From a virus (Duplodnaviria; Heunggongvirae; Uroviricota; Caudoviricetes): a stretch of DNA of 15,832 bases. The notes below the pieces were generated by a model. That model was not told the DNA's origin. It made no database searches and saw only the letters and a list, made by a program, of their open reading frames with translations. The position numbers and the translations under genes are program-made. The stretch lies in the IMG/VR virus record IMGVR_UViG_2675903609_000009; one strand, 5' to 3'. Below are positions 1,462 to 15,832 of this stretch, in pieces (the first letter of the stretch is position 1; every line of letters begins with the position of its first letter).

Positions 1462-1973
1462 ATATGTCCTTTTACCACTACATCAAGTCATTGATTCGAT
1501 CAAACAATTTTCATTGAAAAAGTGCCAAAAATCGCAAATTGACTACACCATTAACTACACCGTTCGGTGCACTGTATGAAACAACGTGGAACAAATAGAC
1601 ACAAGAAATATACAGGCGGGTAATCTTTCCAGGGGGAAGCGCACCAATTCATGAGGGGCGTTAATGTCGATATGGGGATCCCCATAACGGGGCTACCGGA
1701 TTTTTTTTCCGGTTAACCTTTAATCAGGCTGGTGGGTTTTACATACCCTTGATCACCGTAATGATGATCCAGATGTGCACCTTTTCCACCAATGGCGGAA
1801 AAGCTCCAACCGTAACGATGATCGCTATGGTTGCCTCGATGGTCTGCGTGGTCATTATGACCGTTCAGCCAGTGACCTTAATCAGAATTTTTCGCTAAAA
1901 AATGACGTTGGCCACGTCATCCGGAAAGCACAAAATCACGTCGATTTTTAATGAACGGTTAAACCGTCTTTTT

Positions 1974-2008
1974 GTCACGGTGTGTCACTGGTTGTCACTC
2001 TCCGTCAC
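1974..2008 (+). repeat. Four GTCAC motifs at exact 10-bp spacing (1974, 1984, 1994, 2004); candidate protein-binding array near the left island end
   Basis: ttGTCACggtg tGTCACtggt tGTCACtctc cGTCACgatt read directly. Confidence 0.5.
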
Positions 2009-2257
2009 GATTGAGGTGGTGGTCATTCTGCCCGACCGCGCATTTTTGCGCTATCGGGAATATCAAACAGTTACCTCGCCGACTTCCTCAAATTGAGGTT
2101 TCCGAAAATATCAGAGCGGGTTAGCGATTAAGCTGACGAGTAATTAAACTGCGAAAATTTCGTAGTTTCTGAATATATTCCGGCCTGCTGGTTAACAGTC
2201 CTCAGATGTGAGGGATGTAGCCAGCGCAATTTTGCGCTTTGCTTTAATCTCAGTGAG

Positions 2258-2539
2258 TTACCGCCGTAACCGCTCCGGCTTCTTCCAGTGGTACGTGATT
2301 TTCTCCTTCTCCCGATACAGTTCAACGCGGCGATTGTAGGCCAGCATTTCCAGAACGCGGATCCGTATGTCGCGCATATCCGCATCATTAAGCTGGATAC
2401 CATCACGGCGCATCACCTCAGCAACAACACGCGCATAATTTTCGGCTGTCACGCTGTCCGGCTGCGTGGTCTGTTCGTCAGCCTGCTGGCTGATTCCAGA
2501 GACGCGGCGGATTAATCGCAGTATTTCGGCTTCTGTCAT
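2258..2539 (-). CDS. Hypothetical protein (93 aa), last gene of the packaging operon, immediately downstream of large terminase
   Basis: ORF with GAGG Shine-Dalgarno about 10 nt upstream of ATG at 2539; 13-nt gap after terL stop; no family recognised by eye. Confidence 0.5.
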   Translation of the reverse strand: MTEAEILRLIRRVSGISQQADEQTTQPDSVTAENYARVVAEVMRRDGIQLNDADMRDIRIRVLEMLAYNRRVELYREKEKITYHWKKPERLRR

Positions 2540-2552
2540 GCTGCTGACCTCA

Positions 2553-4214
2553 TTACACCCCGCTAAATTCTTCCAGTTTCTGGCGGTGGCTGTCGCTTAT
2601 ATCAAAAGCAAAATCCTCATGCTCTGCCTGGAATGTACCAAACGCCATCAGCGCCGCTACGCTCGGGTCTATCTTGTTCGGTGATTTTTTCTTGTTCGGC
2701 TTGATATTGGCGTTCGCGTCACTCTGCATCACGACGTTACTCATCGACCAGGACAACACCGGATCGCCACGATGCACAATCACCCTGCGGTTAACAAAAA
2801 CTTCGAACGATTTCGCCGCCGGACTGAATCTGAGGTAGGTTTGCGGGAACGGCTCCACCTCAAAACCAGCCCCCTGTAATTGCGTCCTGAGATGCGTGGC
2901 GTTCCACGTATCAAAGCCCACCAGCCTGATATTAAATTTCTCCGCATCCTGCATGATGTCATCTCTGATCCGGTCGTAATCAATGCAGTCACCTGGCGTT
3001 GTGCGTATCCAGCCCGCTTTAGCCCACTGGCGATAGACAGCGCGGTTTTTATTGGCGGGGTTCTGTAGCTGGAACTCCGGCAGATAATGACGGGAAATCA
3101 GCATAATGGTTTTACCGACCGGAAAGGCATAGCATACGCTGGAAATATCGCTGGTTGATGATAAGTCCAGCCCCGCGTAACACTCCTGACCGTGTAAATC
3201 TTCCTCCGTGAACGTTCCGGCACACTCAGCCCATGCACCATTACCCATCCACGGGGTAGTCCCCTGACACCAGATATTAAATCGCTTTGTCATCATCTCC
3301 ACCCACTGCGACGGAATACCCCGCGCTTTCTGGATGGTTGAGGCCAGTTTTTCACGATCCACGGAAACATCAATATTAGGGTTCGCCTTTATCCACATCG
3401 CCGGATCATCAACCTCGTTTTCGTCGTCCAGTTCGTAAATCAGTACAAAAATTGAATCGTTGACCTCTTCGCCGTCCAGGATCTGGCAGCAATAATCATA
3501 GTGCTGTTTACAGGCTGAAACGACGTTACTGCCCGATGTGGTAATGGCAAATAACAGCCCTTCGGGACGTGCGCCCATCCCCAGCTCAAGCGCGGAATAA
3601 ACGCCGTTATCGGGGTGTAGGTGGTATTCGTCCACGATGGAAAGACTGGGGTTTGTCCCCTCGATGGTTGCCGCTTTTGCTGCCAGCGGCTTTAACAGGC
3701 TGTTGCTTTTCGGGTGTATCACCTTATGCGCCTGAATATTCACCCGCCTGCGTAACGGTCGGGATAAAAGGCACATCTGACGCGCATTATCAAACACGAT
3801 CCGCGCCTGGTCACGGCTCACCGCTGCGGTGTAGATATCCTGCTGACCGTTCTCCATAATCAGAAACCAGTTAGCCAGAATCGCGGCGGTCGTGGATTTC
3901 GCATTTTTGCGCGGCACTTCGATAAAGGCGCTCGTGTATTTGCGCCGTCCGGTGGCCTTAACCTTAAAGCCGAGGATGCACGCAAAGGCGAACTGCTGCC
4001 ACGGCTCCAGCTCAATGGGTCTGCCACGCATCGGTCCTTTTACGTGCGGGCACACCCTGGAAAAGGCAATAAACCGCTCCACAACCTCACGATCGAACGT
4101 GTAAAGGGGGCTTTTAAGGTCCGAAAAGTACCGTTTAACAGCCTGTTTTAACCGTTTACAGGCCGGAATTTTGCCCGTTTTTACGTCTTCTGCGTACTTA
4201 TTCCAGGCGGTCAA
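2553..4214 (-). CDS. Terminase large subunit (TerL)
   Basis: 553-aa ORF with Walker A-like VPRKNAKST and Walker B-like IVDEYH plus a C-terminal nuclease-type region; apparent TTG start at 4214 preceded by GAGGA; overlaps terS end by 17 nt. Confidence 0.9.
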   Translation of the reverse strand: MTAWNKYAEDVKTGKIPACKRLKQAVKRYFSDLKSPLYTFDREVVERFIAFSRVCPHVKGPMRGRPIELEPWQQFAFACILGFKVKATGRRKYTSAFIEVPRKNAKSTTAAILANWFLIMENGQQDIYTAAVSRDQARIVFDNARQMCLLSRPLRRRVNIQAHKVIHPKSNSLLKPLAAKAATIEGTNPSLSIVDEYHLHPDNGVYSALELGMGARPEGLLFAITTSGSNVVSACKQHYDYCCQILDGEEVNDSIFVLIYELDDENEVDDPAMWIKANPNIDVSVDREKLASTIQKARGIPSQWVEMMTKRFNIWCQGTTPWMGNGAWAECAGTFTEEDLHGQECYAGLDLSSTSDISSVCYAFPVGKTIMLISRHYLPEFQLQNPANKNRAVYRQWAKAGWIRTTPGDCIDYDRIRDDIMQDAEKFNIRLVGFDTWNATHLRTQLQGAGFEVEPFPQTYLRFSPAAKSFEVFVNRRVIVHRGDPVLSWSMSNVVMQSDANANIKPNKKKSPNKIDPSVAALMAFGTFQAEHEDFAFDISDSHRQKLEEFSGV

Positions 4215-14510: not shown

Positions 14511-14560
14511 TTGTTCGTAGTTGTTCCGCTTTGTTGCTCATTGTTGCACGTTGTATCTGT
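14511..14560 (+). repeat. Five tandem 10-bp units beginning TTGTT (TTGTTCGTAG, TTGTTCCGCT, TTGTTGCTCA, TTGTTGCACG, TTGTATCTGT); candidate protein-binding array
   Basis: Read directly; exact 10-bp phasing; lies between the integrase stop and the alpA promoter region. Confidence 0.6.
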
Positions 14561-14569
14561 TCGCATATC

Positions 14570-14585
14570 CAGTATGCGCATACTG
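14570..14585. promoter_or_regulatory. Perfect 16-bp palindrome CAGTATGCGCATACTG, candidate operator
   Basis: Read directly; sequence equals its reverse complement; immediately 3' of the integrase stop, adjacent to the TTGTT array. Confidence 0.5.
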
Positions 14586-14602
14586 AAAAAACACGAAAAA
14601 AA

Positions 14603-15832
14603 TTATTTTCTTCTGGCTACTGGTAGCGTGGTTACGTTTTCATGTGTTCCCGCCAGTATCCCTAACCGCTCCGTCCACATATCCAGCGCATTGCGTTTAG
14701 CATCCAGATAACGGGAATGATTATAAACTCGCTGCATTCCTGGCATCTGGTGGCCTGTAAGCTGCTCCACGACGTGAGGATCCACGCCTAAATCGTTCAG
14801 CATCGTTGTAAAGGTGCGCCGGATGTCATGTAGTGACCAGTGAGGGTGATTTAGCCTCCTGTGCGCTAATCTGCCGTACTGCGACACGCTTGTTTCCTGT
14901 TTCACTTCCCCCAGCAATAAGCCCGTGTGCCTGTTCTGCTCCACCAGCTGCGTGACGAACGGCAGTATTGCTTCCGGTATGGGCCGGAATATTGCCACCT
15001 TCGTTTTGCTGTGTTCTTTCGGCACGGTCCAGAGCATTTCGGTAAAATCCCACTCGCTGATCTCCGATAACCTCAGTTCTACCGTCCGGCATCCGAACAC
15101 AATCAGGAGGCGGATTAACGCGATGTAGTAGGGGGAGAATATTTTTTTGTCCAGTGCCTGCAATAATTCGCCCAGTTCTTTGGTGCTTAAGACACGCTCG
15201 CTTATATCCGGTTTTTTCCCAACGTCCGCCACACTCATATCATCAAGAACGTTGCTGATTGCATAGCGCCGCCTCCGGCAGAACTTAAGCGCCTGTTTGC
15301 ACGTCTGTAGCAAGAATCCGGCAGTAACAGGCGTTCGCTTTGCCACCTGGTCAAAACAGGCCAGCCAGTGCCGTAGCTCGCATTTATCCAGCGGCATAGC
15401 ACCAATGTGCTGTATTACGTGATTATTAAGGCGCTTTTTCAGGGCGGCATAATCCACGCGGTTTTCCTTTGCGTACGACTCAAGCCAGTAGGTGAGCGCA
15501 TCGCCAACCGTTACCGGCTTTAACGCTTCCTGTACGGTGTAATTAAGCTCATGACGTGGATTTTTCCCCTCTGCCAGCCATGCGCGACACTGGGCGGCTT
15601 TTTCCCTGGCTGATTTCAGGTTCAGATCAGGATAATTTCCCAGCTTAATGCGTTCCGGTGGTGCCCCCCTTCCCGTTCCGGCCCTGTAAGTGAAATACCA
15701 GGTTAAAAGGCCACTGGTTGAATGCCTGACGCTCAGGTTTCCACCGTCATTAAGAAAGGCTGTTTTTTGGGCGGGTGTGCCGTTGATTTTCCTCAGCTGT
15801 GTATCGCTCAGTTTGTTAAGTGCTCTGCTCAT
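14603..15832 (-). CDS. Tyrosine site-specific integrase (P4-type)
   Basis: 409-aa ORF; N-terminal arm-binding-like region (LSDTQLRK...FLNDGGNLSV...WYFTYR) and C-terminal catalytic region with R...HDIRRT...H...Y; ATG is the final codon position of the window. Confidence 0.92.
   Translation of the reverse strand: MSRALNKLSDTQLRKINGTPAQKTAFLNDGGNLSVRHSTSGLLTWYFTYRAGTGRGAPPERIKLGNYPDLNLKSAREKAAQCRAWLAEGKNPRHELNYTVQEALKPVTVGDALTYWLESYAKENRVDYAALKKRLNNHVIQHIGAMPLDKCELRHWLACFDQVAKRTPVTAGFLLQTCKQALKFCRRRRYAISNVLDDMSVADVGKKPDISERVLSTKELGELLQALDKKIFSPYYIALIRLLIVFGCRTVELRLSEISEWDFTEMLWTVPKEHSKTKVAIFRPIPEAILPFVTQLVEQNRHTGLLLGEVKQETSVSQYGRLAHRRLNHPHWSLHDIRRTFTTMLNDLGVDPHVVEQLTGHQMPGMQRVYNHSRYLDAKRNALDMWTERLGILAGTHENVTTLPVARRK

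Follow-up and report, generated by a model that had tools for sequence, protein, structure and literature searches.

Which kind of element is located downstream of phoQ in the IMG/VR virus record IMGVR_UViG_2675903609_000009, and is it still able to form particles? The window, the whole stretch of 15,832 nucleotides analyzed here, consists of phoQ followed by an island, for which a preliminary description made from the letters alone had proposed a capsid-forming phage-inducible chromosomal island (cf-PICI) equipped with a complete HK97-type head and packaging set. Judged by its sequence, the island is the Shigella flexneri ortholog of EcCIEDL933 (CP-933C) of Escherichia coli, a member of a known family and not a new variant. 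We consider it highly probable that the window carries a degenerate S. flexneri copy of an EcCIEDL933-type cf-PICI, most likely unable to form capsids or to package.

Assignment of the island to the cf-PICI family

EcCIEDL933 of E. coli O157:H7 is the experimentally defined cf-PICI prototype (bioRxiv 10.1101/2022.09.08.507074). The same EDL933 island was named CP-933C and O-island 51 (OI-51), corresponds to Sp7 of strain Sakai and is located between ycfD and phoQ (PMC3378721). Comparison with the EDL933 genome revealed the same attB, the phoQ-roxA (ycfD) spacer, and the same gene order and orientation, at a size of 14.7 kb for the window island and 15.4-15.5 kb for EcCIEDL933. Nucleotide identity to the EDL933 island was 96-98% over positions 2256-9194 and 95% over int-alpA. 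At the protein level, 408 of 409 residues of the integrase (Int) and 61 of 62 residues of AlpA were found identical. Capsid, protease, portal, adaptor, connector, HNH, TerS and TerL were all 95-100% identical to their EcCIEDL933 counterparts (TerL 98.7%, portal 97.8%, protease 97.4%, HNH 99.3%, connector 96.9%, TerS identical over its remaining 108 residues). The earlier placement in a described class, with no new system involved, was confirmed by this orthology with the prototype at the same attB. The value formerly seen in the specific variant did not hold up, as the island is a near-identical copy of a characterized element.

Membership in the family was judged by the 11-component model of SatelliteFinder and by the definition of Alqurainy et al. 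The sequence of the window is interrupted by three runs of N at 4541-4671, 5635-5706 and 9328-9450 (131, 72 and 123 nt), which hide the start of terS, part of the adaptor gene and part of an accessory region. The same anchors span 78, 15 and 61 nt in near-identical S. flexneri genomes. The N-runs do not preserve length and were therefore treated as gaps or masks. An apparent 57-bp insertion in the adaptor open reading frame (ORF), which looks 57 nt too long, is an effect of N-run length. The core components are as follows (aa, amino acids).

14603-15832, minus strand: tyrosine integrase, 409 aa (Pfam Arm-DNA-bind_3, Phage_int_M, Phage_integrase)
14040-14228, minus strand: AlpA regulator, 62 aa (Pfam Phage_AlpA, E=5e-18)
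10318-12066, minus strand: replication protein (Rep), 582 aa (Pfam D5_N, DUF5906 P-loop, Pox_D5 C-terminal)
10073-10304, both orientations: iteron-type origin, about 14 copies of GGTAGAYAG / CTRTCTACC
7755-8912, minus strand: major capsid gene, interrupted by an in-frame TGA at 8085-8087 (W276*)
7143-7715, minus strand: HK97-type prohead serine protease, 190 aa (Pfam Peptidase_S78, E=5e-47)
5930-7141, minus strand: portal, 403 aa (Pfam Phage_portal, E=3.6e-88)
5538-5933, minus strand: head completion / head-tail adaptor protein (Pfam Phage_HCP), containing the N-run 5635-5706
5245-5541, minus strand: gp6-like head-tail connector, 98 aa (Pfam Phage_connect_1, TIGR01560)
4805-5245, minus strand: HNH endonuclease, 146 aa, packaging cofactor (Pfam HNH)
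4198-4540, minus strand: TerS of the P27 / Terminase_4 family (Pfam Terminase_4, E=1e-23), 5' end under an N-run
2553-4214, minus strand: TerL, 553 aa (Pfam TerL_ATPase, TerL_nuclease)

All 11 cf-PICI core genes are carried. The integrase gene is found at one end of an element bounded by direct att repeats, alpA is located next to it, and a primase/replicase gene is accompanied by its own origin. A capsid gene of the cf-PICI lineage is present by homology, together with prohead protease, portal, HNH nuclease and TerL. Adaptor and connector were identified via Phage_HCP, Phage_connect_1 and TIGR01560; the adaptor, which comprises 112 aa in sibling genomes, additionally matched the “putative head-tail adaptor” PDB 2kz4 (E=4e-69). 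Profile searches and iteron counts thus supported the satellite hallmarks named before (integrase, AlpA, P4-alpha-like Rep and adjoining iteron origin). Of the exclusion markers, tail, holin and lysis genes, none is carried: scans against Pfam, PHROGs and NCBIfam detected no tail, tail-fibre or lysis genes in the island, in agreement with the preliminary description, and none were found beside it. Contiguous tail or lysis genes just outside the window were looked for as well, and roxA, pepT and potABCD were found there instead.

Lesions of the S. flexneri copy

The two halves of the interrupted capsid gene (275 aa and 109 aa) match positions 1-166 and 169-278 of the Phage_capsid profile. Once the tryptophan is put back, the capsid protein shares about 98% identity with PDB 9GYI, the EcCIEDL933 capsid with T=4 at 3.2 Å (bioRxiv 10.1101/2025.02.11.637232). 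Compared to four E. coli islands, the lesion consists of a single G>A exchange, TGG>TGA. Codon 276 reads TGA in every S. flexneri-type locus covering the site and TGG in the four E. coli islands, and the exact 275-aa capsid fragment was found on at least 1000 contigs named S. flexneri. The stop codon is therefore lineage-wide and no sequencing error. A 36-mer across it gave one match among the GTDB species representatives, S. flexneri SFBU1023. Several S. flexneri-type assemblies match the window at 99.9-100% identity, and the exact integrase is on record in 698 sample blocks, the exact portal in 403. An intact capsid gene, as the family definition has it, is thus missing due to the TGA at codon 276. 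On the genomic evidence, the island is a cf-PICI by descent and a degenerate member of the class.

A second lesion affects terS. All four S. flexneri sibling loci covering the region (L009-L012) lack 98 bp that four E. coli islands possess; this deletion removes most of the upstream spacer, the terS ATG and the first six codons, and is flanked by CCCCGCC microhomology. The remaining terS frame of the siblings offers only CTG or GTG starts. Both lesions distinguish S. flexneri from EcCIEDL933 and from the related E. coli cf-PICIs, in which the capsid TGG and the terS start are intact. Analyzing private codon changes in the packaging genes and int of five sequences, 21 synonymous and 18 nonsynonymous changes were counted on the S. 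flexneri branch, compared to 79 and 18 for two E. coli copies (Fisher p=0.002). This nonsynonymous excess fits relaxed selection.

Capsid and terminase (terS) mutants of EcCIEDL933 were found abolished in transfer (bioRxiv 10.1101/2022.09.08.507074). Based on the capsid W276*, the terS-start deletion of the siblings and these non-transferring prototype mutants, the S. flexneri copy is most likely no longer able to make capsids or to package itself. Most likely it represents an inert or nearly inert descendant, which is vertically inherited in S. flexneri. Excision and replication may have survived, as the genes int, alpA and rep are intact along with the origin and the two att sites. Of the “complete” head and packaging set described before, all named genes are indeed present, but the capsid gene carries a stop codon and the siblings have lost the terS start. 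Similarly, the building of own small capsids, named before as a trait of the class, holds for that class, to which the island belongs by descent, while this copy probably cannot form capsids any more.

Several points weigh against such a loss of function. The terS deletion is unreadable in the window itself, where the N-run 4541-4671 covers the site. Ten of the 11 core ORFs are full length in the window or in the siblings, so that the decay has to be regarded as shallow and of recent date. Among stop codons UGA is the leakiest, and the residue put in by near-cognate readthrough, tryptophan, is the original one; a little full-length capsid could consequently form. The selection test comprised five sequences with parsimony branch assignment and ignored recombination. 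Finally, the literature searched gave no experiment on the S. flexneri copy.

Alternatives to an inert island

A still-working cf-PICI would depend on UGA readthrough to tryptophan at codon 276 and on translation of terS from a downstream GTG or CTG. In its favour, the remaining head and packaging ORFs are intact, tryptophan is what the wild-type protein has at the stop position, and the terS frame is open and offers CTG and GTG as candidate starts. However, stop-codon readthrough reaches a few percent at best, and UGA followed by G is not the leakiest context. A T=4 shell consists of 240 subunits, so that readthrough of a few percent would cut the yield severely. Moreover, in the siblings the deletion has taken the terS ATG together with the whole adjoining upstream spacer, the usual position of a ribosome-binding site, and neither the relaxed selection suggested by the nonsynonymous excess nor the failure of prototype capsid and terS mutants to transfer agrees with a functional element. 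We regard a working island as very unlikely.

The same low probability was assigned to domestication, in which the host would retain the crippled island for a regulator of the RgdR family or for phage interference by leftover head and packaging proteins. The regulator in question is encoded directly upstream of rep.

12063-12362, minus strand: DUF4222 protein, 99 aa, RgdR ortholog (Pfam DUF4222, E=2e-24)

RgdR regulates type III secretion of the enterocyte-effacement locus (LEE) and motility in E. coli O157 (PMC3378721). The RgdR-family protein is common to the window island and EcCIEDL933, with 87.9% identity to the EDL933 protein and an intact R20-G21-D22 motif, and the island with the same lesions is present in very many S. 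flexneri assemblies. Nevertheless, the described targets, LEE and flagellar motility, are not known in Shigella. Given the youth and clonality of the S. flexneri lineages, no selection is required for the island to persist. PADLOC detected no known defence gene, and the nonsynonymous excess speaks against constraint on the packaging genes. An interference route would combine residual excision or replication with truncated capsid or orphan packaging proteins acting against infecting phages. Taken over three routes, RgdR regulation, phage interference or readthrough-based mobility at low frequency, it appears unlikely that S. flexneri keeps the island for a reason.

An ordinary HK97-like prophage remnant with deleted tail and lysis genes is hardly tenable: the head genes do belong to HK97-type Pfam families and the EDL933 copy was first annotated as a degraded cryptic prophage (PMC3378721), but the same tail-less, precisely att-bounded architecture occurs at two chromosomal sites in many E. 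coli lineages, the capsid-protease-portal ... HNH-terS-terL order with an int-alpA-rep left half is that of a cf-PICI, portal identity to real phages is at most 34%, and the prototype is experimentally a helper-dependent satellite (bioRxiv 10.1101/2022.09.08.507074).

Read as a degenerate cf-PICI, the window provides a natural example of a cf-PICI losing its defining trait and a small piece of evidence on how mobile elements decay in Shigella. It also calls for caution in automated satellite calling, since tools relying on marker genes would probably credit the island with all or nearly all of the 11 components, though it is probably inert. Family, mechanism, capsid structure and integration site were already published.

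Life cycle expected from the prototype

For the prototype, experiments demonstrated a helper-dependent satellite with small capsids of its own (bioRxiv 10.1101/2022.09.08.507074; bioRxiv 10.1101/2025.02.11.637232). Induction by a helper, island-filled capsids and transfer depending on helper tails were shown for EcCIEDL933 and other cf-PICIs (bioRxiv 10.1101/2022.09.08.507074; 10.1101/2025.02.11.637232). From orthology, we infer the family mechanism for the window island. The tyrosine integrase would have inserted the element at a 15-bp core overlapping the phoQ stop codon, within the 75-bp phoQ-roxA spacer. A helper phage would turn on alpA, and AlpA would drive excision and a single long operon. 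The P4-alpha-like Rep would bind the iterons downstream of its own gene and replicate the element. Capsid, prohead protease and portal are expected to assemble a T=4 head with room for about 15 kb, into which TerS, TerL and HNH would package the island only. Adaptor and connector would then finish the tail-less head, to be joined to the tails of a helper siphovirus, e.g., HK106.

Integration site and ends of the island

The features of the int-distal end and of its chromosomal flank are listed below.

1-1461, plus strand: phoQ, 486-aa ORF, annotated as phoQ in matching E. coli records; chromosomal flank outside the island
1455-1469: attL core TGAATAAATATGTCC, overlapping the phoQ stop codon
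1537-1594, plus strand: arm-type repeat block with the tandem 12-mer ATTRACTACACC twice at 1538-1561
1556-1735: conserved non-coding block at the int-distal end
2036-2264: variable-number module (GCGCAWTTTTGCGC palindrome ... AGTTACCKC) in two copies (2036-2075, 2223-2264), downstream of the last gene

All credible genes from about 2258 to 15832 are encoded on the minus strand, phoQ on the plus strand, and no tRNA genes were detected in the window. The att core was defined by comparison of the empty phoQ-roxA spacer of MG1655 with the right junctions of the RM6927 island and of locus L007. The empty site corroborated the proposed island start: the first island-specific base is exactly 1470, directly past the phoQ stop codon (1459-1461) and following the att core. 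The attR site, TGATAAAATATGTCC, is identical to attL in 13 of 15 positions with the last 10 nt exact, resulting in a 15-bp imperfect direct repeat. The island end formerly placed at 15832 had to be revised. This position is the ATG of the integrase gene, and in loci encoding the identical integrase the island runs on for about 181 bp to attR, directly beyond which roxA, pepT and potABCD are found. The complete element, a composite of two near-identical genomes, comprises 14,728 bp. With the 75-bp phoQ-roxA spacer split by the island, about 14.7 kb now separate roxA from phoQ, and roxA comes to lie about 250 bp from the start of int, which faces outward. If any transcripts read through from phoPQ to roxA, the island would interrupt them.

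The 58-nt arm-type block shares 81% identity with the RM6927 island at its int-proximal end and has a period of 12 in the TRF analysis. A second copy, seen in L007, lies just upstream of the ATG of int, past the end of the window. The block looks like integrase arm sites, by analogy with those of P4 attP. The conserved non-coding block is better conserved than the adjoining coding DNA, even across islands at a different chromosomal site. Columns identical in five of five islands, including those located in tqsA, amounted to 96% at 1556-1655 and 72% at 1656-1755. No Rfam match and no significant fold on either strand (z = -0.9 and -1.9) were obtained for this block; with such z-scores a structured RNA at 1556-1740 is unsupported. 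Rfam searches of the whole window at gathering thresholds gave nothing. Permissive searches of 12500-14700 and 1440-2300 yielded a best E of about 0.3, far under the gathering scores, and a P4 CI/C4-like RNA was not found there.

Next to this block, an unannotated hydrophobic ORF of 38 aa (MTTQTIEATIAIIVTVGAFPPLVEKVHIWIIITVIKGM) is present at 1739-1855 on the minus strand. Hand translation of the alignment indicated that in EDL933 its N-terminal ~20 residues are largely kept, with the C-terminus altered by indels. The variable-number module occurs once in RM6927, twice in the window and at least three times in EDL933 according to the alignment, which explains an apparent 171-bp “insertion” at 2053-2223. 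The AGTTACCKC module resembles the 3' end of the gene for a 93-aa protein that terminates the packaging operon.

Replication module

Compared to TIGR01613, Rep reached a score of 109.1 at a cut-off of 108.7. Over residues 141-578, Rep is 39.6% identical to the C-terminal helicase and origin-binding part of P4 alpha, and Pfam detected no primase catalytic domain in residues 1-140. The iteron cluster is located directly downstream of rep. Using the stricter pattern GGTAGAVA, 6 matches were counted versus 0.7 expected, and none of 200 shuffles reached 6. E. coli RM6927 carries the same Rep type and the same GGTAGAYAG iterons. The 582-aa D5_N/DUF5906 Rep with GGTAGAYAG contrasts with the 710-aa DUF927 Rep of EDL933 and its different iterons, TTGCGGGTTAT. 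With respect to EcCIEDL933, the replication module is an exchanged unit. Such a swap of Rep together with its iterons illustrates the exchange of modules for which PICIs and cf-PICIs are already known.

Small and accessory genes

The remaining genes of the island are located between alpA and rep, between rep and capsid, and in the packaging operon.

13236-13982, minus strand: 248-aa ORF downstream of alpA, variable region
13027-13227, minus strand: Icd-like small protein, 66 aa (NCBIfam NF033153, E=6e-18)
12671-13037, minus strand: phrog_2512-family gene split by a frameshift, with a C8 run (coding-strand G8) at about 12819-12826
12368-12601, minus strand: 77-aa hypothetical protein (phrog_2196)
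9751-10029, minus strand: 92-aa conserved hypothetical protein (phrog_1231, E=2.9e-51)
9449-9754, minus strand: 101-aa hypothetical protein
about 9216-9439, minus strand: 53-aa SSB'-'PerC fusion remnant, partly masked
9176-9193, minus strand: terminator hairpin AGCCGGAGCAATCCGGCT, one copy in the window
4639-4821, minus strand: 60-aa conserved hypothetical protein between HNH and terS (phrog_3173, E=7.5e-37), 3' end masked
2258-2539, minus strand: 93-aa conserved hypothetical protein, last packaging-operon gene (phrog_1561, E=1.5e-55)

The region downstream of alpA is unlike that of EcCIEDL933. The 248-aa ORF is 63% identical to an EDL933 ORF, and the homologous stretch of RM6927 is annotated as an icd-like pseudogene. 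Since it matched nothing in Pfam, PHROGs, NCBIfam or PADLOC and has a non-protein-like composition, it is doubtful as a real gene. With 7 bases in the homopolymer, L007 and L008 retain an intact phrog_2512-family gene (121 aa); the frameshift in the C8 run could be slipped-strand variation or a homopolymer sequencing error.

Compared to EcCIEDL933, the accessory region between rep and capsid contains the 101-aa gene in addition, and a deletion has fused SSB with PerC. A phrog_27268 match was obtained in 9216-9754. Compared with the O103 island, 503 bp are missing, by which codon 25 of SSB has become linked to the C-terminus of PerC; the Pfam match of PerC covers profile positions 50-77 of 90. 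This deletion is present in the siblings, whereas the window sequence allows it to be followed only as far as the border of the third N-run. In the siblings, two hairpin copies flank a conserved 74-aa gene (phrog_1957). The window is without 340 nt carried by the siblings (L011, 4585-4970) between two 23-nt hairpin copies, CAGCCGGAGCAATCCGGCTTTTT, the window copy being located at 9172-9194. The absence is either genuine, through a deletion mediated by the repeats, or due to a collapse in the assembly. PADLOC, employed for ten small or unassigned ORFs, gave no defence gene.

In the packaging operon, the 60-aa protein is identical to its EDL933 homolog in 60 of 60 residues, the 93-aa protein to 93.5%. 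By analogy with HNH-dependent cos phages we take the spacer between the 60-aa gene and terS (4541-4671) as a candidate for cos only; cos was not located. No clear transmembrane segment was found in the annotated small genes. The top hydropathy scores belonged exclusively to the doubtful 248-aa ORF and the unannotated 38-aa ORF.

Comparison with known satellites and phages

The classical PICIs EcCICFT073 and EcCIED1a also possess an int-alpA-rep left half. The CFT073 PICI is located at phoQ-ycfD, the ED1a PICI between ydgD and ydgG (tqsA) (bioRxiv 10.1101/2022.09.08.507074; PMC3378721). However, classical PICIs are devoid of portal, adaptor, connector and terL and remodel the capsid of their helper. 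In the SatelliteFinder model for PICIs, portal, adaptor and connector serve as exclusion markers (PMC10085698); all three are present in the window island, which separates it from the classical type.

Similarities to P4 are found mainly in the left half. P4 Vis/ORF88 is 47% identical to the island AlpA, and P4 Int is 23% identical over full length to the island Int with the same domain architecture. P4 crr, just downstream of alpha, parallels the iterons directly downstream of rep, the 12-bp arm repeats of P4 attP parallel the 12-mers of the island, and the Icd-like gene is P4-like, too. Unlike P4, the island has its own capsid, portal and terminase. No coding-strand ORF matched sid, psu, delta or epsilon in the Pfam, PHROGs and NCBIfam scans, and the presence of own capsid genes likewise sets the island apart from P4-like satellites.

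With HK97-type head modules the island shares the Pfam families of capsid, S78 protease, portal, gp6-like connector and head completion protein as well as an HNH-assisted terminase. RcGTA capsid structures, from the Rhodobacter gene transfer agent, matched the island capsid with E=1e-46. Unlike HK97-type phages, the island shows a different gene order and contains no tail or lysis genes; no tail, lysis or immunity modules of a complete HK97-like prophage were found in the 14.7 kb between the att sites or in the DNA on either side. The EcCIEDL933 shell has T=4, the HK97-type shell T=7. The possibility considered before, that the head genes match an ordinary prophage best, was not borne out: in the phage collection the close head-gene matches were solely records of 15-16.5 kb, thus of satellite size, while portal identity to true phages was at most 34%. 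The closest “phage” records to portal, integrase and Rep were LR881103.1 (16.5 kb) and OR544139.1 (15.3 kb), satellite-sized genomes deposited as the phages vB_KppS-Ant and Pasteurella phage Pmp8. From their size and gene content, we suspect that they are cf-PICIs themselves.

Among 5,426 complete E. coli genomes, 45 contained close relatives of the island at a coverage of at least 80%, some in the phoQ-roxA spacer and some inside tqsA. The RM6927 island at the phoQ-roxA site is 96% identical over 90% of the window. The tqsA-sited islands of O103:H2, O121 and O157:H16 strains match positions 1489-15831 with 93-95% identity, but have another att core and a more divergent Int, and they split tqsA (ydgG) in O103:H2 and O157:H16. 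An alignment of five islands revealed a mosaic with a conserved packaging module and conserved int-alpA, and with the rep module, the accessory region between rep and capsid and the region downstream of alpA as variable parts. The likeness of the phoQ-roxA and tqsA islands indicates one cf-PICI backbone with at least two integration specificities.

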